Part shown: one piece after another, positions 21,303 to 62,570 of the stretch | Position numbering within the stretch: the first letter of the stretch is position 1 | How the letters are laid out: each line of letters starts with the position of its first letter | NCBI GenBank assembly: GCA_977017645.1 | Contig: OZ360221.1 | Span: forward strand, 157,604,001 to 157,668,000 | Length of the DNA stretch: 64,000 nt | Origin: Torpedo marmorata | Taxonomy: Eukaryota | Direction: 5' to 3' | Position numbers and translations under genes: made by a program | Notes under the pieces: generated by a model | Database searches by the model: none | Seen by the model: the letters and a program-made list of their open reading frames with translations, nothing else | Told to the model about the DNA's origin: nothing

Positions 21303-21341
21303 TTGGTGACGCTGACAAGTACAAACGAATTTGGACCTACA

Positions 21342-30185: not shown

Positions 30186-30218
30186 ACCAATAGGGAAGGT
30201 TTAGGTTGTTGAGGAGAT

Positions 30219-36545: not shown

Positions 36546-36597
36546 GGGGGGGGGGGGAGGGTTTGTGGGGGGGGGGTGGGGGGGGGTGGTTGGTGGT
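36546..36597 (+). repeat. Poly-G tracts (G-quadruplex potential)
   Basis: Three G-runs of about 9-13 nt with short spacers. Confidence 0.85.
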
Positions 36598-38010: not shown

Positions 38011-38327
38011 AACAGTTCAGGCTTCTTATATGCTGCGTCAATGCATTAAAAATGGACACGAATTGCTTGGGTGTGTAAAAAGAAAGGTAAATATTTTCCA
38101 AGTCAGATTACTCCTTTCTCTGAATTTTAACAATACTTTTAAAAACCTTAGAACATTTGGGCATATGCAGATCTCCTTGTTCGTGCTTACATTTTGTTTC
38201 AGTTACCTATTCGCTGACAGTTTTGTTTTAATTCCATTCTCAAGAGCAGTGCGATCGATGCCGGGCCGATTATCAATTGCTTCAACCTGTCTGATATTAA
38301 CAAAGCGAGGGTCGTCAAAGAAAATCA

Positions 38328-38329
38328 GT

Positions 38330-38373
<44 letters not shown>
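38328..38373. repeat. (TG)n(GA)n microsatellite
   Basis: Direct reading. Confidence 0.95.
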
Positions 38374-38376
<3 letters not shown>

Positions 38377-41300
38377 GTGGATTTTAAAGGACCAAATCTT
38401 GAAAAATGTATAAGATCATCCCTAAAATGCAATGATTTTGTTCGTTTTTTCTTAGCCGCACAGTAAGCAGTAAATAACCAGTTTGAATTGAAAATAACTC
38501 CCAACTGAGAATTAATGGATCCGGCAAGCGGCAGTAAAACCACTTATGAAGCACCGCTGTTCTGAGGGAACTGTAGATTGGAAACATTTCTAAAATCGTA
38601 AAATTATGTAGTGCCAAATCTATATCTACATATGATTGAGATTAAGAGCAGTGCTCAAGAAAATTGATTTGTTTAACGGTTTGGACATACTTAGATTAAT
38701 TTGAAGGCTTTTGCATCTTCTCCACCCGCATCTCCCGTTCTCTCCCATCCCTATATCCCCATCCACACACACGCCCGCGCACGCGCTCACACACACAGCG
38801 AGAAATCTATTTAATCACAATTCAATAAATCGACTTTTTAAAATTGCAATCTATAATAAGCGGATCTTCAAAGATGAATGTTTTCCACAATTATTCCGCT
38901 TCCGAAATTCATTGTAAACATTTGTCTAAAATGTCCTCTTAAACATGCCTTTTTTTTTGCTAACTCTGAAGTAGGAGCCCCGTGTGCGGGGATGGGGAAT
39001 TAGGGTACAGGTCGATGCATGCTATTTATAGCGTTGGATTTCTGAATACTTTAGCAAATAGTTAAATTCATTCCTCTGTGACATTAAATTAGATTATTTG
39101 AAGTGTGTGGCCGTCAAGTTCCCTTCCAGTCCTCAAAAATGCAAGAAATAACCCAAATCATCCATAGGAACCAGAGAGGTGCACGTTCTTATTCACGTTC
39201 TTCACCCGGATTTATTAGAATTTATGTACTCCACGTGAAATATTGAACAAGCTCACAGCAATCACTTTTTTTTTTCAAAATGGCCTATTTTGATGTGAAA
39301 TTTTACTTCCCAGAAATTATCCCATTATCGTTTACCTTTAATTAATACTACACATAACAGTTACTTATTTAGGCTTGTGGATCCTTGCTTAAGTATAAAG
39401 TGCTTTAAATCTTTGTTATTTGTTTATTTGTTCGGAACAGTTAAACATTCGTTACCCTTGTGCAATTTGTAACCAACTCTTGCCGTGCTGCAGAATATAG
39501 CTCCAGCACTAGACAAGCTCGACGAGAATGTCCAGGTTTACAATTGCTTCATTGTTAGCAGGTCTGTGTAGCCATGTTTTAAACGTGTCATTCCAGCTTC
39601 AGTGGGGGAACAACTATTTTATTTTCTATTGTTTCAATTTTGAAATATTCTGCTAAAATGTTTAAACCTCGGCTGTGTTTTGATTTCATTTTTCATGAAG
39701 GGATTCAAGATCTCCAGGTTTGTTTTCAATGGACGCGTTTAAAAATATACTGTATCAAGAATAAAGACAGTGATGACAAGAATAATAAATATGTCTTTCT
39801 GATAATAACGACACCGCTCGCAGTGTGGATTAACTTTCAAAGATTTGTGATTTGATAACAAGACAAAGTTGTTGGTGCACTGCAAGATAGATAATCTATA
39901 TCTCAAATAGACGTAAATTACTTTAAATTACAGTGAAGCTGGTTTCGAATTCGAAAATAATACTTTATTTACAATTTCCTTGACACTATTGGTGTGCAAA
40001 TCATTGGCGCTGTTCGTCTACTACAACAGTAATAATCATAGTGTTATTTTGCCAAGAAAAAAAAAGTACAGTACTTTGCTTTCGCTCCTGACGCCTAAAT
40101 TTCAACCAAAACACAATGGCACCTGGTATTGGCGTTGAATAATCTCTACAAGATGTTGGGCATCGTTAGACGATTAAGTGCCCCTCGAACTGGATTTAAA
40201 CAGGATCTTCCATAAATTTATGCACTGTCTATCAAATTTTGTTCCGCAATATATTTCAATTGCTCTGTTGTTTTTAAAGCTTTGGATGATATTTAGCATC
40301 CAGTGTGTTTATTTCTCGGAAGTACTGATAAAGCGAGTTGGTCCAAAATCGTTAAAATATTTAATCAATTAAATGTTCACATGGCTGCTATGAGAAACAA
40401 ATATGAGCTATACATATATCGTGCTCATATCTTATTTGCAATTAAAATGTTGCAGTTGTAAAGTACTGGCAAATTCTTTACAAGAGCTTCATCATATATA
40501 TATCAACAACTCTTAACACTCGCTTTTTTATGACAATTTGCTTACTTTACCCGTTCATTCCCGGGGTTTGTCTACAACAAAGATTGGAGTAATTCTCCAT
40601 GTAAGTTAGTAAATGGTCTGCCGATCTACCTAACCTTTGAAAGAGCAGGGTCAAATGAACGAAGAAGTATCTTTACACTGAAATGTTTTAAAATCCTTTT
40701 CGTGCTTTTTAAAGTAAACGTTTCACTTTTATTTGTGAGATTAGAAATCGTTTAGTATTGGGCACCATTAAGCTTATTATCATTTAGTTGCTTAACGCGC
40801 ATTCCAGTTAAAAATAAGTCTGATGATAACGGGAAATAACATTGGGTGTAGGCCTATTAAATTTTGAGATGCTATGTGCGCCAAAAGGTTCGTGTAAAAA
40901 TGACTAGGTTCCCAGAGAAATATCAATTAGAGAATCGTTTCCACATACTTAAAACTAATCGCTGAAAATGTTAAATCGCCGTGCAATTTGAAACGTTGTC
41001 CAAAATATGAACTTGTGCGCAGAGATACATTCATGCCGGTATAAATAAAAATGCTAACTTGTCATATGCTATAGATCCAAAGCGAGTTGAGATGTGCATT
41101 CACTGGTCTGCTTGTAACGGTTCCTCAAACAATAGAATAGATCTAGAAATAGAGAATGAGGATAATTGCGTTGTCTGCCTCACATATAATTGTTATTCTG
41201 CGTAGCAATTCTCGATATATTTTATCCATATTAGTGCTTCAACCGTATGTATGCCTGCATGTATTTTGGCATGCGTTTAGGTATATATTTGAACATTTGG

Positions 41301-43179
41301 TTTAGTAATAATGCGGGATGTCAATGTCCGGTTGCACCTGTCAGCGGAATATCGCTTGGGTTTTAGAATTTAGCCCCATTTTCTTCCACACTGCTGCCAT
41401 CCTTTTCCTCGATTCAAATTATCTTCTTAGTGGGAGAAATAACATCAGACAATGAACCTAGGTCAATGGCAACATTAATAAGGGCTAAAAGGGAGCAAAA
41501 CGCTTGCTGGCAATGCAACGGCGAAGCAATGATTTTAACACTTCGATGTTTATATTGTTCTATTACCGTACTATAACTGAAAGCAGTCAACAGAGCCATT
41601 TGGTAATTTAGTGGAATACTGCCGAATTACAGCAGTACAAAAAGAATAGGGTTTGATTTTTAAATCGATGGCTTTAAAATCATAATGTAATTGTATAGTC
41701 AAGGGAGTTCAGTATATTGTTTAAGGCGTTGCCTCTGTAATGTGATGAGAGATTATACTGGAATGTGTTGTGGAATTATTGTAATATTACGTTTTGTGTA
41801 CCTCGGTAAATTATTAAGTTTATGTACCTGGCGCTATCCATTAGCTGACAAAGGACTTGCACTATGTTTAAAACTTCAGTAACTCTCTTTCTTGGGTTAT
41901 TTGTAACGACAAATAAAGCAGTTGTGTTTTCACTTTCTCTTAGTTTCCCCCGTTAACTCTTTTTCCCCCTGTATTATTTCAGTCGTTGTTGTACTGATCT
42001 GAACATCTAACCAAAACCAAATAGACAAAAATCAATAGTTTGTTCACTTTGTGGAAATGATCCGAAATCGTCAGCTAACCTAATGGGTCGAAAAGAATAT
42101 CTCGTCGAAACAAATTAAACTGCCTGTATGTTGAATTTTGTTAATCGTGTAATACTATTCTCGTGCTGATATGAAATCGAAGCTAAAAGATACAGCAAGC
42201 AAAATGCATCTTATGACACACTCTGAATGTGCAAACGTAACAAATCATGAAATCTTACGCGAATCTAAGTAGACGGGCGCGCTATAATCGCCCGTTAAAG
42301 TAATGGTATGAACAGATTGTGGTGAGCTTGTATCCCCACCGTTCAACATGCCAACAGCGAAAGAGTTGTTGCCTAGTAGTTGACCTTCCAATTAACAGTG
42401 ATATTGCGAACGAATGTTGTTTTGAGGGGTTTGCATCTCATTTTAAAGAATACTTATACTGAACTCACCTCTTCCGTCAGATGAATCCAAAGTCCATCCG
42501 AAATGTATGTTGTCCGAATTTGTTTATTTTTCCGTGTATAATTGAAAATAGAGACCGGTGTTTTTGTCGCTGAGCAAGTCTTCTCAGAATGTTTACTCTC
42601 GATTGAACGTGGAGAAAGGGACAGTGCCATCCATGAGATGCGATTTAAAAGACCGTGTAAACAACCGTTATAAAGTTCTTTTTATAGTGAAATGAGCATT
42701 GATACCAAAGGCTGCAGTTAGACAACCACTTTGATAAGAGGATAATTGATGCGACAGTAGCGTATAATTAGAGGATAATTATGCTATATCCACTATTTTA
42801 TTCGAAATGCGGTCATAATCATTAAAAGACAATTGTGGGGAAATTCATTGTAGCAATTTTAGAATAATTAAGATACATTTTGTGCATTTCTAAGTTGGCC
42901 CATAATTAACTCTGCACATATCATCCCAAAAGCAAATATAACACTCTATTGCATATTTAATTATATTGATAATACAGTGAACCCATTCATAATTTAAACC
43001 TAATTAATTTTGTACAGCACGTCTACATACTTTAAATCATGCTCAAATTTGCCAAACCGCCAACCACATTCATAATTTGCATATCGTTCAAGCAGGAGAG
43101 CATTTTCTGACTCCCGTGGATAAGGAGGAGTTAACTTCGAGTGCCGGAGCTTCCTCATCAGAAAGAAACGGAGCGTTTA

Positions 43180-43868
43180 TGGCTACCGAGTTAACTGTCT
43201 TCCTTCTCCCGCTAATTACATTAAAATTGTAATTTGAATGCAAAATGTCGATTATTTTCATGTAAACATATATTTCTGCGTAATCATTGCACGGATAATG
43301 TTTAAGTTCCTTTTGCTGTGTAGCTTCATTAAAAATAAAATTACTTGAGAATAAAAATTCAACCTTCGAGACTATAAGTGTAATATTTCGTAATATGGTC
43401 CAGTGCTATCGAAATAACAGCGTGATTTGAGGGTTATAATTCATTTGGAGCTTTGCAAAGCGAAAGCAATTATTGGCGATGTTATGAAAGGTTGTTTGGC
43501 TGTGCTTTAAGTTACTCTGCTTAACCCACTGTTGACTGCATCCACTGAATCCAGTGAAAGTTGCAGGAAGATGACGAGGCAGAGAGATGACCAATCAGAA
43601 GCTGCTGCCCTTTGGAGACAAATCATTCGACTTGTGGCACATTACACCATCTGCATCAAATCTGAAAGCAGAGCCTTAACTTTAGCAGAATCTACTAAAA
43701 GACTGCCTCAACTCCGTCCGTCCTCCACTCAACTTGGAAGTCCAAAATAACCTTCTACTTAAAAACAATAGGAGTTAACACGCCCGCACTTTCTCCTCGG
43801 GAGATTTACTTTCTTCATGAAAAAGAGATATTTCGCTTTTAAGAGTTGTTTTCGATTGAATATTTATA
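43180..43868 (+). promoter_or_regulatory. Dlx6 proximal promoter/5' UTR region
   Basis: Immediately upstream of the ATG; CCAAT at 43591; TAATTA-rich unique block at 43190-43340; TSS not determinable from sequence. Confidence 0.5.
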
Positions 43869-44157
43869 ATGACCATGACTACGATGGCTGACGGTTTGGA
43901 AGCCCCGGACTCCAAATCTGCTTTCATGGAGTTTGGCCAGCAGTCCCAGCAAAGTTCTCCAGCCATGTCTCACAGTCACTACCCAGTGCATTGCCTGCAC
44001 TCAGGACACTCACACCAGCACGACAGCTCGTACCCGGCCGTCAACACTTACAACAGACCCCTGCCTTATCCCTACGTGAGTCACTCTCATCACAGCCCTT
44101 ACCTGCCGTCCTACCACAGCAACAGCACTGGCAGCCAGACACGTTTAGACGAGGCAG
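43869..44157 (+). CDS. dlx6: Distal-less homeobox 6, coding exon 1
   Basis: MTMTTMADGLEAPDSKSAFMEFGQQSQQSSPAMSHSHYPVHCLHS... matches the DLX6 N-terminus; donor G|GTGAGT at 44157/44158, phase 1. Confidence 0.97.
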
Positions 44158-44732
44158 GTGAGTCTTCGACCAGACAGGGTTATCCATTTTTCGGGCTTCC
44201 GTCTTCTTGATTAAATTGTAAACTTCCCGAGTCACAATATCATCTCCTCTTTCAGCAACCACATTTTTTCGTGTGTCGACTATTGATATTTCCCTTCTTT
44301 ATTTTACTTCATTGCTTCAATATCATTTGAAACGTTATTTTTCGTGTCGTATGCCTCTAACGCTCTTCTGCTTGGGGGATATTTTAATGGGGATGTTGTG
44401 TCAATGCATAGCTCAAATATCTGGCCATTATTTGATGGGAATATACATTTTGATCATCAAGTAACCCCATATCATTGCTACCTCCGTCATTAGGAAGTTA
44501 CCGTGTACGTTTATTTACAAATAATTGATCTTCTATTAATTCTTATTGTTAAATTACGATTTTTCAGGGCCGCCAGTGAAGATTGTTCATTGTAATTTGC
44601 CGGGGGCGGAGGGGAGAGGGCTACAAGGGTGGACTGGTGTTAAGGAACTAAAGATAGAATTTAACCCGGTGGAATTGTTAGCGAAGTTGTTCACGTCTTT
44701 GAACGTCTATAAAGGAATAAAGGCGTCGAGGG

Positions 44733-44735
44733 AGA

Positions 44736-44775
<40 letters not shown>
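44733..44775. repeat. (GA)n microsatellite in dlx6 intron 1
   Basis: Direct reading. Confidence 0.95.
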
Positions 44776-44777
<2 letters not shown>

Positions 44778-44861
44778 TACAAAGCAATTCACATTGAAAT
44801 AGATTAAGGAATAAGCTGTGAACAGGGCCGTGGAACATGTCGGCATATGCTTGTTTTCCAG

Positions 44862-45055
44862 AGCAACAAAAGACAACAGTGATTGAAAACGGTGAGATCC
44901 GCTTCAATGGGAAAGGGAAAAAAATCCGCAAGCCTCGAACTATTTATTCAAGCCTACAGCTGCAGGCGTTAAATCACCGTTTCCAACAGACTCAATATTT
45001 GGCATTACCCGAGAGAGCCGAGCTGGCTGCTTCGCTGGGACTCACGCAGACTCAG
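44862..45055 (+). CDS. dlx6: Distal-less homeobox 6, coding exon 2 (homeodomain N-part)
   Basis: Acceptor ttttccag|; (E)[64 protein letters not shown]; donor CAG|GTACAG. Confidence 0.98.
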
Positions 45056-48000
45056 GTACAGTACTCAGGAAAGAACATCTGAGCTCACTTTTAGCACTTC
45101 CTGCAACCCCTCTATTTTTCAAGTTATGTACAGATACTATGAAGGTTCAATTTCACAGAACACATTCACAAGTGTTCACTAAGAGTGCCGGCGGCTTGTT
45201 ACCAGCACGATGCATGAAATGGCTCGAAACATGTTGCACAGGAACGTTATCACTGGAACGTTTCGACCACATTATCCACGTTGCATTAAATGTCGTCCTT
45301 TCAGTTTAAGATAATTATCTTCCTGCATTGTTTCAGCTTACATCAAAACGGCTACTTGCCCCAAAGTACAAAATGGTAACTGCAGCTTTAAGAGCACCAC
45401 GTGGCTCTTGTTCAACAAATATCAGATTAATCAAATCTCAACATTGTATTTTTTTTAACCTTTTTATCTGGATATTTTTGAGGTAAAGCAATTGGATGTG
45501 ACTTAATTTAAGCGTTGATTCCAATTGCCCTTTTGCCTTTTATTTGATCCCACTTTATTTGATGTTTGTTTGGAAAGAATTTTTGGCTCAACTGTAAACG
45601 CGGAGATTTGCTGCTTATGTCTTTGTTTTTTTAAAGCGGCCCATGCAAAACCACAATAGAATAAATCTGTTCACCTCAAGTTGACCATATGCACAGTCCA
45701 CGTGCAAATAAATGACAGCAAATACAGTATTAAAATATTACCTTTCTTTCGTCCATAAAGCCCAAAGCATCCAGTGTATATTTAAACAGCTCTAAAGATA
45801 GCCTTGTTACAAAATTAGTTACCTCATTTCATTTGCGGGCGTCAAAGATGACACGACTAAAAAGAGAATACTGTACGTTTTGGCAGGATTCGAGCGTAGT
45901 TTCTTCAAATCTGAATTCGATTTAGTTATCTTTGAAACAGGGATTAAAGGAAGTGTCAACACTTGCTTAAAAACTCTACATATGCTTGGGATCATGCAAT
46001 ATAATTGATGGTTTTCCATTTGCTCAGAAATAAACATAGGCTCTTCGTTCAGCAAGATAAATTGGCAAATAGTCTGTAATGTTTTCAATACTTGGATAAA
46101 CAATCTTCGGATTTGTTTTTCTGATATAGACTTCTGAGTCAGAATTTTTAAAAAATATAGGCTTCATTGATTTAATTACAGCGACTACCGAGACGTCCTT
46201 GGAATGCTGCACTAATATAATGGGGGACAGTGGGAGGCGAAGAAAATGTGCAGAATTTCCAGTTTATTTAGTACTTAAGTGCCTCTTGACAGTTGAGAGT
46301 ATATGTCTTCCATTTTGGTGGTAGTTACAGGCATTGATTTACCATTACAAATTGCAAAATTGTTGTTCATTGGAAATCAATTAAAAAATTCGTATTTCAC
46401 GCAGTTTAAATGTCTCAATAAACAATTATCTCGCGCATTCATTTTTTGCTTAAAATATCTGTTTAAAATCAAACTAAAGAAACTAGAATGATTAATTGGG
46501 TGACATGAGCCTTACAGCATTATAAAGATGCTTGTGCACTCCATTGTTCCAACAGCTGATGTTATTTATTTTTCAAAAACACATTTTCTTGGACGTCAGT
46601 CTTTCTAAGAAATTTCACGTCGTATGAACTCTACAACACAACAATACTAACAGTATGGGATTTAAGTAAATACTTTTTTTCTGCCGTTGTCAAATTTCTT
46701 TCAATATATTTAGCAATGCTCATTGCAATAAACCCCAAATACGCCAGATTTGAAAGCACCAGAAAGCATCGTAGTTGGAATGATTTTCATTGATGGATGA
46801 TTAAACCCATTTTTTACTTAGACATAAAGCTTACCAGTCAAGTTCACAATGCACATTTTTGATTACGCTGTCTGTTTTGAACCGCTTGACAAGTACAGAC
46901 AATATCTACTTCGCCTTTGTTTCTTGAGGGGAACGTCGGTGGTGATGCTGAGGGATTGGGGGATGGAGATAGTGAGGTGGGGAGAGATGAGACACGATAC
47001 AATTATGACGTAAAAGAGTTTACGATTAATCGTTGAGGGATAAACTGGGAAGGAATGAAATCCGCGTATTAACTAGCATATATTTCATCAAAATGGCTGT
47101 AATTATGAAGCAGCCACAAATCGGAACCGTAGACATATAGTCAATCTTGGCAACATTGATGCAATTTTATAAAAGCCCGCCGTTGTTTAACTTTCTGGAG
47201 TGGAACCGCCAGTTTGTTCAAAGTCTGTTTGAAATATACTAATTCCACAGTAAAAATATTACTATTTAAACCGGTGATCGTGACCATTATGAATTTCTAC
47301 ATGCCGGAACCAGGTTCCATTGAGTTAACAGCATAAACACCAAGCTTTTCTTCTTAGGCCTCTTAAAACCCTACTCCTTGTGTTGAATTTGAACTTCATT
47401 GAAATACCGAACGGGCGGAGCTTATCTTTGTACTGATCAGTACGAAATAATATAACGCATACACGAGGTTAATATGTGCTCTTAACTTGTTTAAATAAGC
47501 TAACAAGCTTGAATGGTTTTGACGTAAATACACAAAATTTACTACAACCACAGCGTCTGCAGCCTTTCTTGTTTTATTAAATAGTTTTGACGAATGTATT
47601 GTATCTAATGTTGCCTGAGAAGCAGGATGTTATTTTCTGTATTAGGAGCCATAAAATAGATTTGCAAATGGATCCACTCTTGTGGAGATTATTCAGTCGA
47701 TTGCATAATGCTCACCCTTTGATTTATATCTTTATTGCTTGATCGCGATACCGAGCATATTTTCTCTTCCATATCGGTGAAACGTTTTATATATACTATT
47801 TAATTATCACACAGTAACGCAATGCTCCACTCTCTTGGACATTTAAACAAATGTGCAAAATAATTTATACAGAATTATTTGTAGAAATCGACCAATTACT
47901 TCTGTACAGATATTTATCTTTTTCAGTCTTTCTCGCAATATCGTTTCTGATTATATTTCGATACCATGTTACTTTTTCAATGTCAGTACCGTTGACAATT

Positions 48001-48079
48001 TTACTAACTGTAAACAAAGATACTGACTGCCGTTTAAAGGCCGTGCATTTACATTTTAAACACGTGTTATTTATTGTAG

Positions 48080-48328
48080 GTGAAAATCTGGTTCCAGAAT
48101 AAACGCTCAAAGTTTAAGAAACTGATGAAACAGGGCGGGAATCCCCTTGAGAATGATTCCATGTCCGGGTCGGCTGGTCTCTCCCCTCGTTCCCCAGCCA
48201 TCCCGCCAGTGTGGGACATCTCAGCTTCGGCCAAAGGCGTCAATATGACCTCTAACAGTTATATGGCTGGCTATTCCTCCTGGTACTCCACGAGCCACCA
48301 AGACACCATGCAAAGACAGATGATGTAA
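48080..48328 (+). CDS. dlx6: Distal-less homeobox 6, coding exon 3
   Basis: Acceptor ttgtag|; [19 protein letters not shown]...[13 protein letters not shown]...[10 protein letters not shown]; spliced CDS 732 nt = 243 aa. Confidence 0.98.
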
Positions 48329-48707
48329 CACCCTGAAGCCAAAAATCTATCCATGGAGTGAAATCAGTGGGGTTAAGATACCCACGCGCCATTTTCAATG
48401 GATGATCCAGCAGCGATTACAGTTGCTAATAGCCATGTTAAATTGGACAAGCAATGGGCTAAAAGGAGGATTGGTCGATGACTGTAGACATTGCATAAAA
48501 GGCCTCCACCGTCTCCAGAGAGTCCATGGGAACCAATGATTACAAAATGCGAATGCATTGTGGAAGATTTTATGCTGATTTTAAAACGGCGTAGGTTGGT
48601 AATGCTAAAACGCACTGGAAGCAGATGAAAAGACACATTGTATGTATATATTGATTAATTTGTAGGTGTACATAGTTTATATGTTTTATGTTTCTTTCAT
48701 ATTGAGT

Positions 48708-48713
48708 AATAAA
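48708..48713 (+). terminator. Probable dlx6 polyadenylation signal
   Basis: AATAAA 380 nt after the stop, with a GT-rich stretch (gtgtcttgtggtt) downstream. Confidence 0.65.
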
Positions 48714-49367
48714 TCAAAAAGATCAACGTGTCTTGTGGTTAACTTTGTTTAAAACGACATGGAAGGAGTTTCACTTCACTGATACATTCGTTACAGGGTA
48801 AAAGTCCCGCTTAGTAAAGTATAGCATATTTTGAAAGGGAAAGCCTGAAGATTAGTTTCAAATTGCATCCAGAAAATTAGGCTCAAGTGATATTTTTCGG
48901 GACAATGCACGGTAAAAATATCAGAACGCCACAGAAAGATGTGCTGCATTAACAGCAAAGGAGTTATCGATTACAAGCAAGCTTAACATTTCTGCCACAG
49001 GCCTTAAATCCACATATTCGAGTCTAAAGCAATATCATGGAATCCACTGTAAATATTTTGCTTCAGTGAAAACAATGATGGAAAATAAACTGCTATTCTA
49101 TTTCAAGTCACACTAACGCACCTCCTTGTCGTCATTTGAGTCCTCGTTAGAGTAAAATAGAACTCACAGGTGAATATTTTAACTAAGCAAGAAACAACCA
49201 AATGATGAAAAAGAGGGTCAGTTTGAACCTTTGTAACCATGGGCCTATAAACATCACATTGAAAGCCGTTGAAACTTGGCCATTGATCTCAATTGACGAA
49301 GAAAAGACATGCCCACGATTCCAAAATGATGATAACTCTCAGTATGTGGAAAACCATAATTACTTAC

Positions 49368-49755
49368 CGAGATATAGTTGTTTGGTTCTTGTGAGCAACC
49401 AAGGAAATAAATTACAGAGCTCTATTATCAGCCACGGTTCTGATCTCATCTAATGGACTCGCCACTCCACCGGTAATATTGACTGATTTTCACGAACTCA
49501 GAAAGTCTCATGTAAAATATCCAACATGATCAATACTAAACAAAAACCTCCAGCTGCAGCCCCCGTTCAATTTAAAGCTGATACTTGGTACAATTTATGG
49601 TATTATTCGCGAGAAAGGTTCAGACCATCATAAAAGCGACTATAATTAGGGTAATTTTTGATGTAGCCCGCTGATTACAGCGTTTTTACAGTCAAAGGTA
49701 ATTATATGTAATTTTCTCCCACTTTTAATACTAAAGAGCTTTCGTTATTTAAGTG
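49368..49755 (-). ncRNA. Predicted exon of an Evf2/Dlx6os1 (DLX6-AS1)-like antisense lncRNA
   Basis: Minus-strand acceptor with a long polypyrimidine tract (ttctattctttctattttgtttcattcttcttcttccag|) at 49756, and donor TCG|GTAAGT at 49368/49367; the exon covers the I56i core, as mammalian Evf2 exon 2 does. Confidence 0.6.
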
Positions 49756-49780
49756 CTGGAAGAAGAAGAATGAAACAAAA
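49520..49780. promoter_or_regulatory. Intergenic enhancer I56i (ei) orthologue
   Basis: About 1.2 kb past the dlx6 stop; contains cctccagctgcag and ATAATTAGGGTAATTTTTGATGTAGCCCGCTGATTACAGCGTTTTTAC..., which I recall as the ultraconserved I56i core; DLX-type TAATT sites at 49642-49649 and 49698-49705. Confidence 0.8.
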
Positions 49781-51899
49781 TAGAAAGAATAGAATGTTGT
49801 GTTATGCATAAATCGGTTAAAGGAGCTTTTTAATCCAATCCAGTAGGCATGGCAAAAAGAAAGATATCTGTAAAAGAAATTGAACTTCAAAGGTTGATTT
49901 TAGAAACGGTGTGTATCTCACTCCTAAAACAAAACCTGCACAATACTACATTTTGTATAATTTAAGCAAAACATATGCTTTAAAAAAAAAAAAAGATCTC
50001 AATGTACATTTTAATGTGCACAACCATTTAAATAGTAAATGAAATTTGTGGAATAAATCGGACAGAATTCAATTCCTTGGTAGATTTTTAAAAAAAATAA
50101 GCAAGATTAATCAGAAATTCAAATGGTATTAAACACAAACATATATTTTTAGTAATTTTGATCAAAATTTGTATTAAAGTCACAATTTAAAGCCACTTTA
50201 CCGTTTATAATGAACATGGTGTATTGGGTAAGTGCATTGAGTTTGGTTTTGCTCCTCAACAGCTTTTTACATGTAGACGCATCTGGGCAAGACGGATCTA
50301 ACTGTGCATTCACAGATCAAGCATAATTTTAACTTTCAATTTTACATCTAAGATTTCTGAACATAAAGAATAAATGGCCATCAATGTCCCATACATTTTA
50401 TATCTTGTCGCTGCGTTGACTACATAAATGCATTTTAAAGGGGGTCACCACCCCTTCTTTTCGTCATTGTCTCTTATCAAATATTAACCCATAGACAAAT
50501 ATTTTAACAGCGCCTTTCGGAGATTGCCCTTAGATTCGTCGGAGGAAATATCTCGAGCATCTTTATGTGACAGGCAACAGTGTGTGCAATCAAATTGAAA
50601 ACACTGATCTAATGAGGATTCCAACGACAAAATAAATGCGCCAGGGGTTATATTCTAATCCAATCACTCTTTTTCTGAGGCCAAGCTTTACATTGTAAAT
50701 AAATAATATAATGACTGCTTCTACATTAAATGTAAAATAACTGTGAAAATTTATACAACACATTTGTATCAACGATATTTGTAAACATTGTTGTGCCTTT
50801 GGCTATCATTATTTCCCCATGAAAATTCATTGTAGTGTTCTTTTTCTTTAAATAAGTAAAATGATTTGATATTTGATTTGTGAAATCTGCACGGCAATGT
50901 ATTGTAAGACCAGACACCTTCTGCCTTTCAAGACTGTGTCGATGACAGTCACATGAGAGTGAGTTTACGAGGCAGAGAAGAGGATACATGCGGAGGACAT
51001 TTTACTCTCTTCATTGGTGGAGATGTTTCGGTTCATCTGGCTCAGTGAAGGAAACAGTGTTTATGTAACATTTGTTTGTCCCACTCCAGTGTTCAATTCC
51101 CAAAGCGAATGTGCTCGATTAAGAATTAAAAGGCTACACGTGGAGAACTTGATCCGAGCGTTAAATAGTACTTCTTGTGAATGGTGAGAATCCACATTTT
51201 CCCCAACATATGTGTCTGCCATCTCTGGGAAGTATTGGTTTGGTTCTGAATGAAGTAATGCAAATAACAACGTACAAATATCCCAGTACCAGGAACCACC
51301 CTGCCTTTTATTAGTGAGGACCTGATATAACGTTTCATATAGAATATGGATGCCGATTCCAGATCACATCGCGCCCCGGTTGTGAGGAGCTGCTTGTTTT
51401 TGTTGTTGCTTTGGAGAATGTGAGGAGCAAGCCCATGAGCATTTATGTCCCATCTCCTCCAGCTTGCCTGCTTCTCGAGAAAGAAAAAAGCACCCGAGAA
51501 TTTCGAGTTAATTTACCATTTTTTCCCCGGGCTGATGTTGCATTTCCGCTTGACCCTCGAACCGCCCGCTGATGTTCAGCAGTAGAAATGGTGGGCGAAG
51601 TAAAAGCGCCTGATATCCCGCATGTGGACTGCGCAGAGATCAGAACTTTCACCTTTCGAGAGTCTCTCTTTCTCTCTTCGCTCTCTCTCTCTCTCACTCT
51701 CTCTCACTCGCACACACTCGCGCGCGCGTACACACACACACACACACTCCTATTAAAATTTCTCAGAACCTTAGCTGAAAGAGAACATACTACAACTACA
51801 TCATTTGAGCCGAAATGGCAACCGAGCTGCCTCTGGAGAACGTTAGTGGAAACGCAAGGAATGGTTTAATCCTTCAGCTCCGGCTCCTCTTAAGCAAGA

Positions 51900-52240
51900 T
51901 TTTACTTTCATCGTAAACATGGCCGATAGCTGTCTTGTCACCATAACATCGGCAGCACAACACAGCAACGTTTCATGCAAAACGACTTGGAAAAGTTAGG
52001 AAAGAATTAGCACGTCATACACTTAGTTGAAAATATTTCCTATAGTAATAGCCAATTGTATATTACAGCATAATAACTGTATTAAATGTATTTTTCTGGA
52101 CATCACAAGCAGTTTACAAGATCGCCAATCAGAGTTTTACAGAATACTCTGCTGACATACGTTGCCAAGTTATTACAATATCTCAGAATTGTTGTCAACT
52201 GCTAATGTAATTAGCGCATTGCTTGTAAAATTACATGCGT
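51900..52240. promoter_or_regulatory. Candidate intergenic enhancer I56ii (eii)
   Basis: Unique TAAT/CCAAT-rich block (gcagtttacaagatcgccaatc...gctaatgtaattagcgcattgcttgtaaaattac) ~2.3 kb Dlx5-ward of I56i, where I56ii is expected; identity not confirmed by alignment. Confidence 0.5.
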
Positions 52241-52301
52241 ATCACACAACTACAGACATCCAGACAGATCGATAGACACACTGATAGACGGACGGACAGG
52301 C

Positions 52302-52392: not shown

Positions 52393-52583
52393 AGGATTTG
52401 TGAAGCCTTGGGCATCTATTGATTATCCTTCCTAGGTTGTCCGTGGAGCCTGCGACATAACATCGCATGATTGAATATTCTTTTAAACATTCTGCATTGG
52501 GTTTATCATTTGAAAAATCACTTAACCCACTCCATCCGTCAAACAATCCACGCTTAAGTCCTTGGCCGACATTTTTCCATAAA

Positions 52584-52687
52584 TTGATGAAGGGCTCAAG
52601 CCCGAAATATCGGTTATGTATCTTAATCTTTGCTATATAAAGTACACTGTTTGACCTGCTGAGTTTCTCCAGCATTGTGTTTTTTAC
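52584..52687 (+). mobile_element. PLE pLTR 3' end with hammerhead-like core
   Basis: ttgatgaagggctcaagcccgaaatatcggttatg...gacctgctgagtttctccagcattgtgtttttac, closely matching 10519-10620. Confidence 0.85.
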
Positions 52688-52764
52688 ACGCCTAAGTCCT
52701 GTTGTGCGGAGGAAGTGAATATCCATAAATGATCGACTTCAAACAGGAAGTCTCGAATAATTCA

Positions 52765-54352
52765 CAAAACCTACAAAGCGAGGGCGAACACTATAGACGG
52801 CTGTGATGCTTCACTATCCAATTAGCTGAACATCTTCTATGCCTGCTTTGAGAAGAAGAACCAAACAGTGCCAACTAGAATCCTTGAAAAGGCTGAGGAC
52901 CCTGTGATGTCTGTCTCTGAGCCGGAAGTCAGAACATCATTCAAGAGGGTGAACCCTCGCAAGGCGTCAGGCCCTGACGGCGTACCTGGCAGGGTACTGA
53001 AAACCTGTGCCAACCACCTAGCCGGAGTGTTCACAGACATTTCCAACCTCTCATTGCGGCCAGTAGCACAAACTTCTACTGTGATGAAATGCTTTGAGAG
53101 GCTGGTCATGGCCAGAATTAACACGTACCTAAGCAAAGATCTGGACCCACTGCAATTCGCCTATTGTCACAATCGCTCCACAGCAGATGCAATATCACTG
53201 GTTCTCCACTCAGCTTTGGATCACCTCGAAAACAACACATATGGCTGCTCTTCATCGACTACAGCTCGGCCTTCAATACCATTATTCTCTCAGTGCTGGT
53301 CAAGAAGCTACAAACTCTAGGCCTCTGTACCCCGCTCTGCAACTGGATCCTTGACTTTCTCATCAGAAGACCACAGTCAGTATGAATTGGAAACAACATC
53401 TCCTCCTCACTGATTATCAACACAGGCGCACCCCAAGGATGCGTGCTTAGCCCACTGCTCTACTCGTTATACACCCATGACTGTGTGGCCAGGCACAATT
53501 CCAATGCCATCTACAAGTTTGCCGATGACACCACAGTTGTCGGCAGAATCACAAATGGCAATAAGGAAGCGTACAGGAGGGAGATAGATCAGCTTGTTGA
53601 ATGGTGTAATGACAACAACCTTGCGCTCAACGTCAGCAAAACCAAGGAGATGATTGTGGACTTTAGGAGGAAGTCAGGGGAACACGACCCAGTCCTCATC
53701 GAGGGCTCAGTCGTGGAGAGGGTCAAGAACTTCAAATTCCTGGGTGTCAACATCTCCGAGGATCTGTCCTGGAGCCTCCACGTTGATGCAATCACAAAGA
53801 AGGCTTGCCAGCGGCTATACTTTGTGAGGTGTCTGAGGAGATTTGGTATGTCACCGAAGACTCTCGTAAACTTCTACAGGTGTACCGTGGAGAGCATTCT
53901 GGCTGGTTGCATCACTGTCTGGTATGGAGGCGCCAACTCTCAGGACAAAAATAAACTCCAGAGGTTTGTTAACTCGGCCTGTGACATCACAGGCACCAGA
54001 CTTCACTCCATCGAGGACATCTACATGAGGCAGTGTCTTAAAAAACCAGCCTCTATCCTCAAAGACCCCCACCACCCAGGCCATGCCCTCTTCACTCTGC
54101 TACCATCGGGAAAAAGGTACAGGAGCCTAAAGACAAGCACTCAATTGCACAAGGACAGCTTCTTCCCCACTGCCATCAGATTCCTAAATATTCAATGAAC
54201 CAAAGACACTGCCTTACTTTTCGTGCACTATTATTTATATTTTTTTTATAGAAATGTCGTAACATGTTTATAATATGAATGTTTAAACTATGATGCTGCC
54301 GCAAAACACCGAATTTCATGACTTGTTCATGACAATAAATTTTGATTCTGAA
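52765..54352 (+). mobile_element. Rex1/Babar LINE, 5'-truncated, in the Dlx6-Dlx5 intergenic region
   Basis: [64 protein letters not shown]; gacaataaa(ttctga) tail; left boundary approximate. Confidence 0.92.
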
Positions 54353-54769
54353 CCGCAAACACTTCCCCGTGTCCTCAGCCATAAACTTGTTTACCTTCAT
54401 AAACAGAACATGTCATGAAATTCCTTCATATATAACTATACCAACAAAGCGAGCTTCACCCCTGCGAGGCATGTCTGTTCGAAGGACAATCCTTCCAATC
54501 TTGCATCAAAAGACACTGTGACGATTCAAATATTTGTACTGTATAACCAGGCAAAAGCTTTCGCTACACCGGTTGTGGAAGCATATCAGGTGTGAAAGTG
54601 TTTGCACACCCCTCCACTTCTTATATTGCCAGCAAAATTAGCTGTTACTGCTGTCAGTATTTTGGGAATAGTTAGGTTGATAAAGCCACTGTAATCAAGA
54701 GAGGTGCATCTTTGCAAATTATAGGCAATTGTAAATGTCCAGATTATGATAATAACATCTTAATGCAGA

Positions 54770-55280
54770 CTGGAGGATAACTACTAGGAACTGTCCAGTT
54801 CGACTACTTTCGCCACCATTTGTGCAGAACAGATGGCTATTGAGTGAAATAAAGGTGGATAAATCCTCAGGGCATGACATGATATTCCCTCCGACCTTGA
54901 GGGAGGCGAGTGCAGAAATTGAAGGAGCCTTGGCAGATATATTTAAAACATCCTTATTTACAGGTGAGGTGCCGGAGAATTAGAGGGTAGCTCATATTGT
55001 TCCGTTGTTTAAAAAAGGCTTCAAATATAACCCAGGAAATTATAGGCCGGTGAGCCTCACATCAGTGGTAGGTAAGATATTGGAAAGCTACTAAGAGATC
55101 GGATATACAAGTATTTGGGATGGTCAACATGTCTTTGTGCTGGTTGGTCGTGTTTAACAAATCTTCGTGGAGGTTACCTGGAAAGCTGATGCAGGAAGGG
55201 CTGTGGATGTTGTCTACATGGACTTTACTGAGGCCTTTGACAAGGTCTCACATGGAAGGTTAGTCAGGGAGGTTCAGACG
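54770..55280 (+). mobile_element. CR1 LINE internal fragment
   Basis: Colinear with 4190-4680 (aaaggtggataaatcc..., [20 protein letters not shown]). Confidence 0.85.
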
Positions 55281-58200
55281 CCTGGTAGATCGGTTATGAA
55301 AGCTGAAATTTATTCACGGAGTAATTCACGTGCACTGAGGAAAGATGCAGCGTAGTTTGTCACAGAATAATAATATCAACATCGAGACCTTGTTTAATTA
55401 ACATTGGACATAAATTGTTTAGGAACTGGCCTAGGGTGGTTTGAAAGTTTGAAATGGATTTTTGCTTTATCTCCCGTCGTTGATTCCGCACAGAATACAT
55501 CCCTTATTCTTAATTGCGACGATTTAGTCAAGTTTTATTTATCCAGGGTACCGCCGAGAGAAAAAATCCCAACATTTCCAACAAATTCCGCAGTATTTCA
55601 AACCCGTTTTCTCTTTTACAGAAACGCTATCACCAAAGTCATTCATACTTTCAAATATAAAATGCAGTCTCTCAAATTAAAGATTCACGGGCTTCAACAC
55701 ATTAAGTGGGGAATTGCCGCAGAATGCCAATAAAACACAAATGAAATGGGAACATGAAGAACATTCAAAGCAGCAAAAAAGACCAACAAGGGACATTTTC
55801 GTTCCGATGATTCCTTTACATCAGGTGTGACATTTTAATAAATTAACCCCGCCCATCCACAACCCAACACACTTTCCTGCCCAGCCCTTTACCCTGTTAC
55901 TCGCTATTAAGAACCATCTGAACGCGTGCAGTGAGTGTATTTGCTTCAAATGCTAACACGCGTTCAACTATTATTCAAATTAGAATACACGAATGATAAA
56001 GGGGCAAAATTTGAAGAGAAGCGTGGTTTCGCCTTGAATAAACCCATGAATGTTTGTCCATTATGCTTGAAAAACTCTCCACCCCATTCGCACTCCATTA
56101 ACAATTCAGATGCAAAACCTGACGTAGGGCAAATTGTTGCCGCATGATGCACGATGAAAGTAATTAGACGGAGCTGCATTTCCTGCTGTAAAACGTGCAA
56201 AATGCCATAATCCTTAGATACTTAAATTATACAGTCGCATTCAACGAGCTTCGAACATCACAGTTGCGTGTCATATCAAATTACAGCAAGGCAAGCTTGT
56301 CGTTGGACATGCGGCTTAACAATTAAAAAAGGTTGTGGTTGACAGGTTTTAATGCTTCGATTGCTAGACGGATAGAATAACATCAACAAATGTGTTACTC
56401 ATTTTTCCTCGACTACAATGTAGTAGTAAAACACGAGTTAATTCGATCTTAAATCCCAGTAATTGTAGAAGGACGCAAAAGCCAGGGTTTATATTTCGAG
56501 CTAAAGACGCCAACGTCTGCTTTCATGTTCCTATTTCACATCTTTCCATTTTAGATGGAAAGTGAAAGCTCTCTGCAGCCATACCGTGTTTACCCACATT
56601 AATGAAAATGAACAAAAACTGATTTTTTTTTTGGCGGCAAATCCTTGCAGGGAGATGTCATCTTATTTTTTTAATAGGACTTGAATAAACAATGAGCTCT
56701 AAACGGCTAATAAACGAGAAAACATTTTTAGTAGAATGTATGTTTATTTTGCGCAGCCTGTGCTGCCCAATGAGTTCTTGACGAAATGCACCAACCGTAG
56801 ATATTTATCCATGCCTTTGTCCAGCGTTTCTCTTATATGTACAGGTGCTTTGCCTCAGTGTCTATGGACGTGAACGTCTTGTCCGTGTGGTGAGAGTTAC
56901 TTGCATGTGCATAGTTAAAGTTTCGCGCCCGAAAATACTTCGATTTATTATGTTTAGATCTTTTTCCAAGAATCAAACGTGTGTTGGTTGAGTCGGGTGG
57001 TGACTGGAAGCAGCGCTGCACTGGAGCCGGCCCGCACCCACAGGAATGCAGCTTAACTGCCGCCCTCTCGGCTCCTCTCTGCCACTCAAAGCTGCTAATT
57101 GTGGGCAATACAAAGAGAAAGAAAGTCTGCGGGAAGTCTGCGAGTCAATCTCCAGGAGAGCTCAGCTACCAGAGAAACGAACACAACAAATTCCAGCGGC
57201 AAGATCCTGTCCCACCTATAACACTCCACTGCCTTAAGGCACGAAGGATGCTTTTCAAACCTGTGTTTCATCGCCACACAAAATAGCAGGCATCTACAGT
57301 TCTCAACCGAACTTGGCATCCCCCATTTAATAGTGTTCACCGAGAAACACATATGCGCGTGGGGACAATACAATGTCGGTTAGATTCTTACGATTGTGTT
57401 TAGCATTAATTTCTGTAATGGAACTGGTCTGTCATGAATGTAAGTTCAAGCGGGCCTAACGCCACTACACTAACACCATTACGTTATTTCCCGGTGAAAT
57501 TCATTTATATATCTACTAATGGGTGGCGATCTCATAGTAAGTACTGATATTTCCCATCTGCCGCCTCTGGATAGGGCTGTTAATTTTTTATGCTATGATA
57601 CACACCCATGTTTGCGCATTTAATGTCTATTCACTCCATGCTCGATTGAGGATACACATTCGCTAATAACTCAATATTATAAAGTTCGTCCAACCACTAA
57701 CCAATTTCCACCTCTCCGCCAAGACCCGGCAGTAATAAATCAATTATGAAACCAATGGAGTATCTACATTTTTACGGAATCTTAACGGTACGTCTTGTTT
57801 TATTTTGTTACCAACACCAAGAAGTCACCGCTTCTCTTCCGCCACATATCTGTTCGGATTTCGCGGTTAAGTTTAGGCCTGTTGAATAAATAGTCAGCGG
57901 CCATCAATTTTACGACATAAAATCCCGCCGCATTTGTGAGTTATCAGGGTTATCAATGTTCCCACGTCATCGTGATACGGATTTGATCTGCTAAACTGAC
58001 CGTCACATAAAGCAGAATTAACTCACACTGCACAACAACGAATACGGGTTCTTTAGACGATTACACGAATTAGGAACAAAAACTCCATCACTTAAATTCG
58101 CATTCAATTTTAATATGATTTATTTAAAGAACACCAGCACTGTAAAGGAAAGCTTGGCTATTTTAATGTAGATAATCATATCTCCCACAAACATACGAGC

Positions 58201-59265
58201 GGCCATTCTTATTTGTAGAAATAGTTAAAAAATCACACCAGCTCATTCTTTCGGGAGTTTAAGATTATCCTTTTTGTAAATTTTGGGTCTGGACATGTGT
58301 TATTAATTTCTCTCAAAATACGCCACGCTCGATCACGTGTGAATTCACTGGTCGGAATTCAGACCCCATATCATATTATTTGTGATTGTAGTAGGACCGC
58401 GAACTTAGCAACAACCAATTTTTTTGCTGATTTTGTCTTTGGCTATCAGATGATTGCAATGGAAATATTTGCCTATTTTTTAGGTACAGTTAGAAAGCGC
58501 CACACTAGCACGAAATATGTGTCATAGTTACTTACACCTTACCTTAGTTCTTGGAGAGCCTATGTCCAGGACGTTTGATTGCATGCCCGACCAAGCGATA
58601 AAAGTTTTTCCAAAATCCACATTTATCTTAAAAATAATCTTAATTTTAAACACGTGAATCAGCATGAACATTTAGCATTGGAAATTAGGATAACGCTGAT
58701 ACATTTTATTTCCATTTTCTTACTCTATTTGTACGCACGTGTTCCATTTGTTTACATTTTGGATTTCTGAGGCATCATTTATTCTATTCAATTGGGTTTA
58801 CTTCTCCTCCAACCTTTTGACATGACAGTGTAGCACAGACGAAGGAAGTTAACTCTGGGCCCAAATTGATGATGATTTCTTAATTTTTAGGCATAAAGCA
58901 GAGAAACATCAAATAAAAGTTTGAAGGCATCCCGCTTTAAAGAAAATAAGAATTGAAAACATTTAAATATTCCTTATGTTTAATTAATTCACTTGAATCT
59001 TATCTCTGTCTATATGCTTTGATACCTGTAATTCAATAGAGTATTTTACCAATCAGCATTATGGCTTGAGACTTAATTGCTTAATTGCAAAATAAGTGCA
59101 TAAAACATATAACTCTAACTTTCCTTTGCTGGTAAGCACCTTGGTCAGTCCTTCAAATAACAATACCAATGATCACTGAACATTTGTTAATGACACAATT
59201 CAGTCTGACCACACAATTGTATCAAATAAGCTTCCAACAATAATGTTGTCTGAAGGGTCAATAAT

Positions 59266-59271
59266 TTTATT
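59266..59271 (-). terminator. Probable dlx5 polyadenylation signal
   Basis: AATAAA on the minus strand ~340 nt after the stop. Confidence 0.55.
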
Positions 59272-59612
59272 TAAACAGAATATACAGTTTAATCCAACTA
59301 TCTACACGTATGTACAGAGATAGGTGTGACTGAAAAGTCCAGTCAGGTTGGGGGGGGGGGTGGTCATAGCCTACTAGTAAAAGGCACCGTTGACAGTGTC
59401 CAAGCTGGCCATGAAGTCCACTTGGAAAATAGCCAATTTTCCTCTTTGAAATGCAGAGAATCGAAATGCACCGAACAAGAGGACAGTGTCAGAAATTTCA
59501 CTGAACTGGAGAGTTTGGTTTCTCTGGATTCCAACTGAACAAAACGTGCATTTCTTTGCATAGCTCCACTGTTTGTCGGTCATAACCAATCCACTTTGTA
59601 ATATATTTCAAA

Positions 59613-59927
59613 TTAATAAATCGTCCCAGATCCCAAAGCTAGTGGATGATGTAGTGCGCTTGCAGACTGCAGGTGGGAATTAATGGCATTGGGACTTGAA
59701 TACCAGGAACCGGTGTTTTCTAGGTAGCCTGAGGGGGACGGGTTGTGGCTGGGGGTTTGATGAGTGTGGATAACTCTTGAGGAGCTGTGACTCTCCCAAA
59801 CAGCCGGGGACTGAGGAGAATTGCAGGCCATGGGGTCACTGGAACTGGGGCTGTGCTCTGGGGGGATCTCTCCATTTTTTATGAACTTCTTGATTTTTGA
59901 CCTTCGGTTCTGGAACCATATTTTAAC
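59613..59927 (-). CDS. dlx5: Distal-less homeobox 5, coding exon 3
   Basis: Acceptor tttgacag|; [45 protein letters not shown]...LALGSGTIY*; spliced CDS 834 nt = 277 aa. Confidence 0.98.
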
Positions 59928-60924
59928 CTGTCAAAGTAAATAAGACAATTAATTAAATAATCACAAACCAGCGATAAATATAACAAAGCGACGGGGCTAT
60001 GCTGCCCGCTGTATATTTCTCCCCTCCCCCTCCAGGGCTACATGAACAATCCAAGTGTAATGGTGCATTCTGCATTCACTCCTTTAGAAGTCAGTTCACA
60101 TTGTAAACAAATATCAAAGAAAATATCCGTTCATGGGGCTTCATAGCGAACAGAAAGCTACTTATTTTTTTATGCGATTATAACATTTTTTTCCTCTCTG
60201 CATCCTGCTCCTTTATTGCTCAAATGATTCTTTTGTTATAAATTAAACCAGCTTCGTCTGCTCTTCACCCCGTAGCCGCCGGATTTGAGGTCGTATTGTT
60301 CTGGGTCCCACTAATCCAGTGAGCTCCGCGCATTCGAGCCGAGTTTATCGCAAATAATAGATTTTCAAAAGATCGAAAAGTAAGTGTACTTTCCCGCACC
60401 TTCTCGATGTTTGTATTATTGAAGTCCTTCCTCTCTTAATCACATGATTTTCTAATTTTTGGAAATGTTTCGTAAGCAGCCTGAATATAATTTTAACTTT
60501 ACGTTCAACAATTTAAAAATGCAACATCGCACTAAAATATGCAATATAATTTTCAAACCACTTATGGTGGTGAAATTCCGAATATCGAACTGAAATGACA
60601 ATTGGATTAAATTTGCAAGTATTTTCAATCTTCGATCGAGTTGGAAATGAGGTACAGAATTACCACATCCTCGCCACGCGAACGGAGGCGGTGAGAGATG
60701 GCTGGTATTTTAAACTAACAAGAACACTGGCGTTCAAATAAGAGGGAAGCCGAGCCGCGTGAACTGGAGGTCTTATATATAAACATACATATTTACATTC
60801 TGTTTATATGTCTGCGGCATTAAGTCGGCGAGACGAGACAATCGCAGGGTCAGCTACAGAGTTTGGTTTTGTTTTGCACAGATTTATATTTGACATTGCG
60901 TAGACAGGATCAGTCCCGTGTTTA

Positions 60925-61320
<396 letters not shown>

Positions 61321-61960
61321 TCAAAATCCGAACAAAACGGCCCGATTGCAGAATAAACGCGCAGGGGGTGGGGGGGATAAGGCTCCAGAAAGTACAGAGC
61401 GCGCTTTGCCGCGGGACTCCGAGCGGGCTCAATGAAGGCGGTTCGAGGTTTCACTGTCAGTCCTACTGGGTTAAAACTTCACCAGGGAGACACCTCAAAG
61501 TCACAATTTACATCCCAGTCTCACGTAGTAATTTCGTTTTGTGTCCAAGTCCCGCTTTAAAAATAACGAGCCAATGATCCCCTGAAAGAATTTGCCGACA
61601 GCACTCTCCCCATTTAGTGGAAACACGGACACTTTCACTTCACCCGAGGACGAACAAGCCGAGAGTGGAGGTTGGAAAAGTGAGATTTATTTGTACTTGT
61701 GCCATAACTCGCCCACATTTCTCTGTCTTTGCAGCGGTCAGCGGTTGACGTTCGGTCCCAACATTCATGCAAAAACCCCACAGGGCAGCGTGTTTCCCAA
61801 GCTGGCGTTCGGTTGGAACCCCAGATCCCGTCGAGCTTGTTGGAGAGAGATGCTCGGGACAGGAATTGCTGAAAGTGGGTCCGGATGGGGGAGCATTTCT
61901 ATGGCCTTACGACAAACTGGAGGAACTGGTGGAGAAGTTGCGAAAAAAATGGCCCCTTAC

Positions 61961-62294
61961 CTGACTGGTTGCATGTCGGCGGAGCCCTGCCGTACGAAGC
62001 ATACTGATGGTAATGGCCGGGGTAGCTGTAGTCCTGGTAGGCTTTGGCTGGGTAACTGGCGGCCGAGCCGCTCCCTCCGTGGTACTGGTACTGGTAAGGG
62101 TTGAGAACTTTGCCGTAAGACGAAGGCGAACAGTAGCCGTGATGAGAGGCGCCGGAGCTGTAGTAACCCGTATCGGTGGCCGTGGACTCAGGTAGGGTCG
62201 GCGATTCCTGCGCCGGGTGGTGCATGCTGTGCTGGAAAGTGCCCTGCTGATCTGTCCGGATGCTGGGAACCTTGCGATCGAATATTGCTGTCAT
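61961..62294 (-). CDS. dlx5: Distal-less homeobox 5, coding exon 1
   Basis: [13 protein letters not shown]...[30 protein letters not shown]...YPAKAY matches DLX5; donor CAG|GTAAGG, phase 1. Confidence 0.97.
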
Positions 62295-62570
62295 AGCCTT
62301 GGGACCGGGGGTGGGTCGATGTGCTTGTGTGTATGTGTGTGTGTGTGTGTGCGCGCCCGCGCGCCCGCGCGTGTCCGTGTGTGGGGGGTGGGAGGGAGGA
62401 AGGGGACAATAGGAGTGATCTATGTAGACATGGCTGTGTGTGCTACAGGGAATCAGGCTTCAGGCAGACTGTGGCTGGGGCACAGCAAAGTCTTGGTTAA
62501 GTCCCTAATTGCGCTATTACGCACTAGATGGATGCGTTCCATTGGATAATATAATCATCCATCAGTAACA
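62295..62570 (-). promoter_or_regulatory. Dlx5 5' UTR/proximal promoter
   Basis: CCAAT on the minus strand at 62541-62545; homeodomain-type CAATTAG at ~62505-62511; (CA)n/(CG)n alternating tract at 62326-62372. Confidence 0.55.

Follow-up and report, generated by a model that had tools for sequence, protein, structure and literature searches.

A predicted Evf2/DLX6-AS1-like antisense exon across the I56i enhancer of the ray Dlx5/Dlx6 locus

The I56i enhancer between Dlx6 and Dlx5 of a ray bears splice signals which suggest that, on the strand antisense to Dlx6, it also forms an exon of a spliced long non-coding RNA. With a probability estimated at about 0.7, this stretch is orthologous to the exon of Evf2/DLX6-AS1 that contains I56i and uses a splice donor at position 49367; for the exact 388-nt exon, running from an acceptor at 49755 to that donor, the odds are put at even. 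The signals are real and well placed, and the exon is probably a member of the known Evf2/DLX6-AS1 gene. The I56i stretch would then have two jobs, one as a DNA enhancer and the other as a probable spliced RNA exon. Evf2 is the founding example for the long-standing question of whether constraint on ultraconserved enhancers extends to their RNA. All positions refer to the window, the whole stretch of 64,000 nucleotides that was analysed (Table 1).

The locus and the identity of the enhancer

Dlx6 (plus strand) and Dlx5 (minus strand) form a convergent pair with an intergenic gap of 11.3 kb. Dlx6 exon 1 is 99% identical to that of Mobula hypostoma, 91% to that of Chiloscyllium, and 88% to that of Callorhinchus. 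Therefore, the host animal is most likely a ray, which agrees with the probable cartilaginous fish proposed in the preliminary description, a reading made from the letters of the sequence.

The conserved non-coding element between the two genes is the homologue of mouse and human I56i. A 21-nt motif of its core is identical in mouse mDLX and human hDLXI56i, the comparison covering the first 400 characters of each sequence as printed in supplement 3 of PMC12807873. The same motif has a sole match in metagenome contigs, in a sequence referred to here as L002, and none in viral contigs, prokaryote genomes, or plasmids (the last by blastn). L002 aligns to 49786-49550 with 76.5% identity over 243 nt, including 48 identical nt, and both TAATT sites of the core are found in L002, mouse, and human as well as in the ray. 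Two such homeodomain sites are a core feature of I56i. When the ray I56i was used as a query, a single match was obtained in the 6.2-Gb genome, and L002 has no match in that genome other than I56i. The element studied in catshark by Debiais-Thibaud et al. (2013, PMC3695995) is the same one, as judged from its forward primer, which matches at 17/20 from 49431, within the 3' portion of the exon predicted here and beyond the block shared with L002. The core motif, the L002 alignment, and the catshark primer thus bear out the earlier identification of the element as I56i, the enhancer that is bound by DLX proteins and serves Dlx5/Dlx6 in forebrain and arches. Enhancer activity is known in print from the catshark orthologue, described as a conserved, orientation-independent enhancer that is active in the zebrafish telencephalon and is 76% identical to mouse over 338 bp (PMC3695995).

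Six of the seven published mouse primers and three of the four catshark primers compared with the intergenic region were uninformative; a mouse I56i primer falls at the right place in the ray, with a score of 14/20 that is tied with another site. I56ii was not located in 54300-59600, and neither catshark I56ii primer matched above chance. As for L002, at several positions it agrees with mouse rather than with the ray (by eye), it matches mouse primers at 15-16/20 only, and the catshark forward primer site is absent from it. Therefore, L002 is read as a non-mammalian bony vertebrate, probably a fish.

Two further features of the core were observed. The two TAATT sites are able to pair around a CGCTG-TAAT-CAGCG hairpin in both the ray (49641-49706) and L002 (1553-1620); inverted protein-binding sites would mimic this pattern, and covariation is beyond what two sequences can reveal. 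At the first TAATT site, L002 (1551-1559), mouse, and human have a donor-like CAG/GTAATT (8/9), the GT of which has been lost in the ray.

Table 1. Positions of genes, enhancer, and predicted or candidate RNA features in the window
Feature	Position	Strand	Remarks
Dlx6 coding exons 1-3	43875..48328	+	inside the intron that donor 49367 would open
Predicted internal exon, 388 nt, of an Evf2/DLX6-AS1-like antisense lncRNA	49368..49755	-	from length and splice signals
Donor TCG/GTAAGT	49362..49370	-	7/9 of consensus: +1 to +6 perfect, -3 and -2 not
Catshark I56i forward primer match (PMC3695995)	49431..49450	+	17/20; runner-up 13 (11.3-kb intergenic region, both strands)
I56i enhancer, alignable block	49528..49825		73-77% to L002
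Near-invariant I56i core	about 49735-49641		two TAATT homeodomain sites, 49704 and 49648
Candidate downstream acceptors AAG, TAG	49731..49741	-	exon starts 49738 (371 nt) and 49730 (363 nt)
Polypyrimidine tract and CAG acceptor	49756..49795	-	best-scoring 3' splice site; holds the TTTTGTTYC motif
Candidate upstream acceptor CAG	49868..49870	-	exon start 49867, 500 nt; 22/35 pyrimidines, AG-free for 15 nt; near the upstream site of other species
Candidate promoter/first-exon region	51300..51950	-	patch richer in GC and CpG, with GA/GT repeats; donors at 51652 and 51516 (7/9)
Dlx5 coding exons 1-3	59613..62290	-	

Splice signals around I56i

The distance from 49755 to 49368 on the minus strand is exactly the 388 nt given in the preliminary description, and its account of the signals at either end was found to be accurate. 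The polypyrimidine tract of about 35 nt is represented by 30 pyrimidines among the 35 positions from -40 to -6, the CAG lies at 49758-49756, and the 68 nt upstream are free of AG; the perfect GTAAGT at the exon end holds for +1 to +6, with 7/9 for the consensus as a whole. Only the position of the acceptor relative to the enhancer has to be qualified. It had been placed at the edge of the I56i core, and it does precede the near-invariant core by about 20 nt, but it falls about 30 nt inside the block alignable with L002 and is not outside I56i. The donor lies about 160-180 nt beyond that block and faces Dlx6, 1039 nt from its stop codon.

Both signals are uncommon. Acceptors of such strength number one on the minus strand of the window and two on the plus strand, the latter both in repeat-rich DNA, and the pyrimidine tract at 49755 exceeds those of all four real Dlx5/Dlx6 acceptors (17-24/35). 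The donor is one of six GTAAGT sites and the sole G/GTAAGT on the minus strand, and it is the first donor of at least 7/9 downstream of the 49755 acceptor. Taken as guides, since the acceptor thresholds were fixed after the site had been seen and shuffling loses low-complexity runs, the counts from 3000 dinucleotide shuffles were 26 for a loose acceptor no more than 100 nt away from the site and zero for a strict one, four for a loose acceptor with GTAAGT 50-600 nt downstream, and 364 for GTAAGT alone. By the same thresholds, 300 kb of adjoining genomic DNA, read on both strands, contain 11 strict acceptors, none of them followed by GTAAGT 50-600 nt downstream, and 81 loose ones, five of which are so followed; the flanks hold 60 GTAAGT sites, about one per 5 kb. 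Since a strong acceptor and a donor that flank I56i on the strand predicted from mouse are rare in shuffles (4/3000), the pair is counted in favour of an Evf2-like exon.

The exon is non-coding, with stops in all three sense frames and a longest open stretch of about 30 codons. No unusual RNA fold was found in it (z -0.31), and the consensus fold of ray and L002, based on two sequences, is too thin for covariation. No Rfam match was obtained for the exon, and the weak matches near it are due to chance; across the window only the 5S-like repeat described below reaches the gathering score. An asymmetry in poly(A) signals between 48.3 and 52.3 kb (five on the minus and 13 on the plus strand) was dropped from consideration because strand base skew could cause it. 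Plus-strand poly(A) signals lie at 48708, 49084, and 49406, and Dlx6 transcripts may extend to one of them.

Conservation of the splice sites and alternative explanations

In L002 a donor, AGG/GTAAGT, lies 311 nt from the core start, versus 315 nt in the ray, and the DNA between core and donor aligns between the two no better than shuffled sequence does (164 of 300 shuffles reach the score). In 20000 shuffles of the L002 part, GTAAGT came as close as 5, 10, 25, and 50 nt to its expected position in fractions of 0.003, 0.006, 0.014, and 0.025, respectively, and the looser GTRAG was found within 25 nt in 12%, for a comparison that consists of one sequence and a motif picked post hoc. Since the site is outside the alignable enhancer, where enhancer constraint explains it poorly, the spacing of the donor is the best evidence for the exon. 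Its position looks old and conserved.

The acceptor differs in this respect. The motif TTTTGTTYC in the pyrimidine tract is common to the ray, L002, and the printed mouse and human sequences, but 16 bases after it the ray has CCAG, L002 has TCAA, and mouse and human have CCTG (the last two by eye). The first AG past the tract is 12 nt further on in L002 and 13 nt further on in mouse and human, where the ray has AACG; measured from the ray acceptor column, these three have AGs 12-13 nt downstream, and others upstream at a distance of about 95-105 nt. In L002 an AG-free zone of 68 nt extends over the same tract and ends in AAG, which would give an exon of 370 nt. Therefore, as far as the sequences compared can tell, it looks as if the acceptor has moved between lineages while the donor has been kept. 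The preliminary description had taken the splice signals to suggest a spliced RNA older than the split between sharks and bony fishes. Since the acceptor AG is absent from its column in mouse, human, and L002, the signals at these exact positions do not alone show a spliced RNA from before that split; of the conservation expected in other gnathostomes, the donor shows a counterpart in one sequence, L002, and the acceptor AG shows none at its column.

An Evf2-like exon with the same donor may have another 5' boundary in the ray, namely 49867 or one of 49738 and 49730. A pyrimidine-rich TTTYCAG/C stands upstream, 79 nt before the motif in mouse and human and 76 nt before it in L002; the ray lacks it at that column. 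In the printed mouse and human sequences this CAG is the stronger-looking site, and it is probably also present in catshark, the reverse primer of which opens with TCAGC and fits L002 best, if weakly (13/20, runner-up 12), at the upstream CAG. If it is a real site elsewhere, the pyrimidine tract would be exonic in those species. As regards the downstream candidates, the TAG of 49730 is present in the ray, L002, mouse, and human, and the AAG of 49738 would give 371 nt, close to the 370 nt of L002. However, in the ray the CAG of 49755 is far stronger (30/35 pyrimidines versus 22-25/35), no other AG stands between it and the tract, and the other boundaries, which are variants of the preferred Evf2-like exon and overlap with it in probability, are considered unlikely. 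A different explanation is that I56i is a DNA enhancer only: the tract would be a protein-binding sequence, the CAG a chance change in the ray lineage, and the GTAAGT incidental, with any RNA being an unspliced eRNA or read-through from Dlx5. The AG is missing from three bony vertebrates, catshark I56i is active in both orientations (PMC3695995), and GTAAGT occurs about once in 5 kb, all of which this explanation would accommodate. Moreover, the tract is partly kept without the AG in mouse, human, and L002; therefore, it may serve an enhancer function, and the argument from chance is weaker for the acceptor. The enhancer-only explanation does not readily account for the L002 donor at the same distance outside alignable sequence, nor for the location of both signals on the Evf2 strand when Evf transcripts are known in mouse and zebrafish, and it is regarded as fairly improbable.

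It may also be asked whether an ancestral Evf2 exon survives in rays as a relic, its signals persisting or rarely used and without a functional RNA, so that all that mattered would be the process of antisense transcription or splicing itself. The ordinary fold, the lack of a downstream exon match in Rfam (window and 150 kb upstream), and several positions at which the ray core departs from the bony-vertebrate state are consistent with this. Yet decay predicts a weakened acceptor, and that of the ray is stronger than the real Dlx acceptors, which makes a relic very unlikely. To return to the preferred reading of a used Evf2-like exon, a stronger version of it is put forward tentatively, at clearly less than even odds: selection may have acted on the splicing of I56i into an RNA, separately from its role as a DNA enhancer, ever since jawed vertebrates last shared an ancestor. 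The distance to the donor would have been fixed while the surrounding sequence was fully turned over, and the acceptor would have shifted as AGs were reciprocally gained and lost (ray CAG versus mammal CTG, and mammal AAG versus ray ACG, 13 nt apart). If this is true, it would be direct sequence evidence of an ultraconserved enhancer constrained as spliced RNA, and a natural experiment that separates the two functions. Because the donor is outside the alignable enhancer, the splice sites allow the function of the RNA to be tested with the enhancer core untouched.

Relation to Evf2 and genomic context

Mouse Evf2 antisense ChIRP probe 1 (10.1101/2024.02.20.581236) has the reverse-complement sequence of an I56i primer from mouse (PMC8520905), and this primer matches L002 at 15/20, in the orientation that corresponds to the window's minus strand; an overlapping primer does so at 16/20. 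The orientation of probe and primer gives the minus strand as the sense of Evf2, and the claim that the predicted ray exon is antisense to Dlx6, like Evf2, is upheld. Probes 2 and 3 lie 3' of probe 1, and probe 3 shares sequence with a primer at the flank of the I56i deletion (10.1101/2024.02.20.581236, PMC8520905); therefore, the mouse RNA continues past the core. The whole of Dlx6 is stated to sit within Evf2 intron 2 (PMC4047558), which fits a ray donor at 1039 nt from the Dlx6 stop. Evf2 is described as a 3.7-kb spliced, polyadenylated RNA, with no stable transcript from I56ii (10.1101/2020.09.22.307215), and four Evf exons have been described (PMC12297475); Evf exon coordinates do not appear in the available portions of PMC6439142, PMC8557472, PMC11311550, PMC8163032, and PMC3862641.

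The ray candidate therefore resembles mouse Evf2/Dlx6os1 and human DLX6-AS1 in its locus, its strand, the presence of the I56i (ei) core in RNA sense, and a donor placed so that Dlx6 would fall in the next intron. It is unlike them in that its acceptor AG is off the mammalian column and its exon is a prediction from genomic DNA. Another antisense lncRNA over a conserved enhancer is Dlx1as of the paralogous Dlx1/2 pair, but it belongs to the other cluster and its exon 2 overlaps the Dlx1 coding sequence (PMC4047558); the ray query has a single genome match. Outside mammals, zebrafish has a transcript labelled Evf1/2 (ENSDARG00000101648), which is expressed, Edn1-dependent, and co-regulated with dlx6a in arch neural crest (PMC4825933). 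Therefore, an Evf transcript is not limited to mammals.

In cartilaginous fishes, the catshark study treats I56i as DNA only, "Evf" occurring zero times in the text available (PMC3695995), and the elephant shark study covers URE2 and, in the portion available, leaves Evf unmentioned (PMC2891724). No chondrichthyan Evf2 was found among the literature matches listed, a scope that does not establish absence from print. Evf2 sequences from chick and zebrafish were reportedly presented by Feng et al. in 2006, and the work of Hezroni in 2015 is said to cover elephant shark lncRNAs. With the catshark activity and zebrafish Evf1/2 already in print, the exon would be no great surprise to specialists. 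If it is used in rays, the spliced RNA would be as old as the jawed vertebrates, more than 430 million years (dating from PMC3695995).

The proposed scheme for the transcript is as follows. A promoter between I56i and Dlx5, for which the patch at 51.3-51.9 kb is a candidate, would fire toward Dlx6; splicing would retain the enhancer as an internal exon, the CAG of 49755 and the donor of 49367 being its most likely boundaries; and the following intron would run antisense across all of Dlx6 to a terminal exon. Mouse Evf2 exon-1 primers match the ray at chance level (15/24), and for the terminal exon, sought as one shared with Evf1 and tens of kb upstream of Dlx6, Rfam gave no lncRNA match, either in the window or over the 150 kb upstream. 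Mouse Evf2 is known to be expressed in forebrain and arches and to regulate Dlx5/6 (PMC9198352, PMC4047558, 10.1101/2020.09.22.307215). In mouse, Evf2 represses Dlx6 in cis by antisense transcription (PMC9198352, PMC4047558) and recruits DLX, MECP2, SOX2, and SWI/SNF proteins in trans (PMC9198352, PMC4047558, 10.1101/2020.09.22.307215). By analogy, read-through transcription may dampen Dlx6 in cis in the ray, and the spliced RNA with the conserved core may bring DLX, SOX2, and SWI/SNF back to the enhancer.

A strong donor, GAG/GTGAGT (8/9), was also observed at 42468 on the minus strand, at about 1.4 kb ahead of where Dlx6 starts, in the Dlx6 promoter region, and is a candidate for an Evf1-like first exon.

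CpG is barely depleted in this part of the window, with observed/expected values mostly 0.6-1.3 across 40-64 kb outside repeats, and 36300-52300 together with 55200-64000 is likely an unmethylated developmental domain. The 16 kb around Dlx6 are nearly without interspersed repeats, versus the repeat-filled 1-36 kb. Between I56i and Dlx5, a LINE-like reverse transcriptase fragment (RVT_1 and ALKBH8_N) is inserted at 52826-54198, and other repeats lie at 52565-52688 and 54849-55276. At 3600-9000 and 21180-24900 there are two related, broken retrotransposon-like copies with gag/protease, reverse transcriptase, RNase H, and integrase-like open reading frames (by eye), the former interrupted by a LINE fragment. 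The 5S rRNA-like match on the minus strand at 30067-30186 (47.9 bits, above the Rfam gathering score) is probably a pseudogene or the head of a 5S-derived SINE, and the palindromic repeat beside it occurs a second time at 35327-35700.
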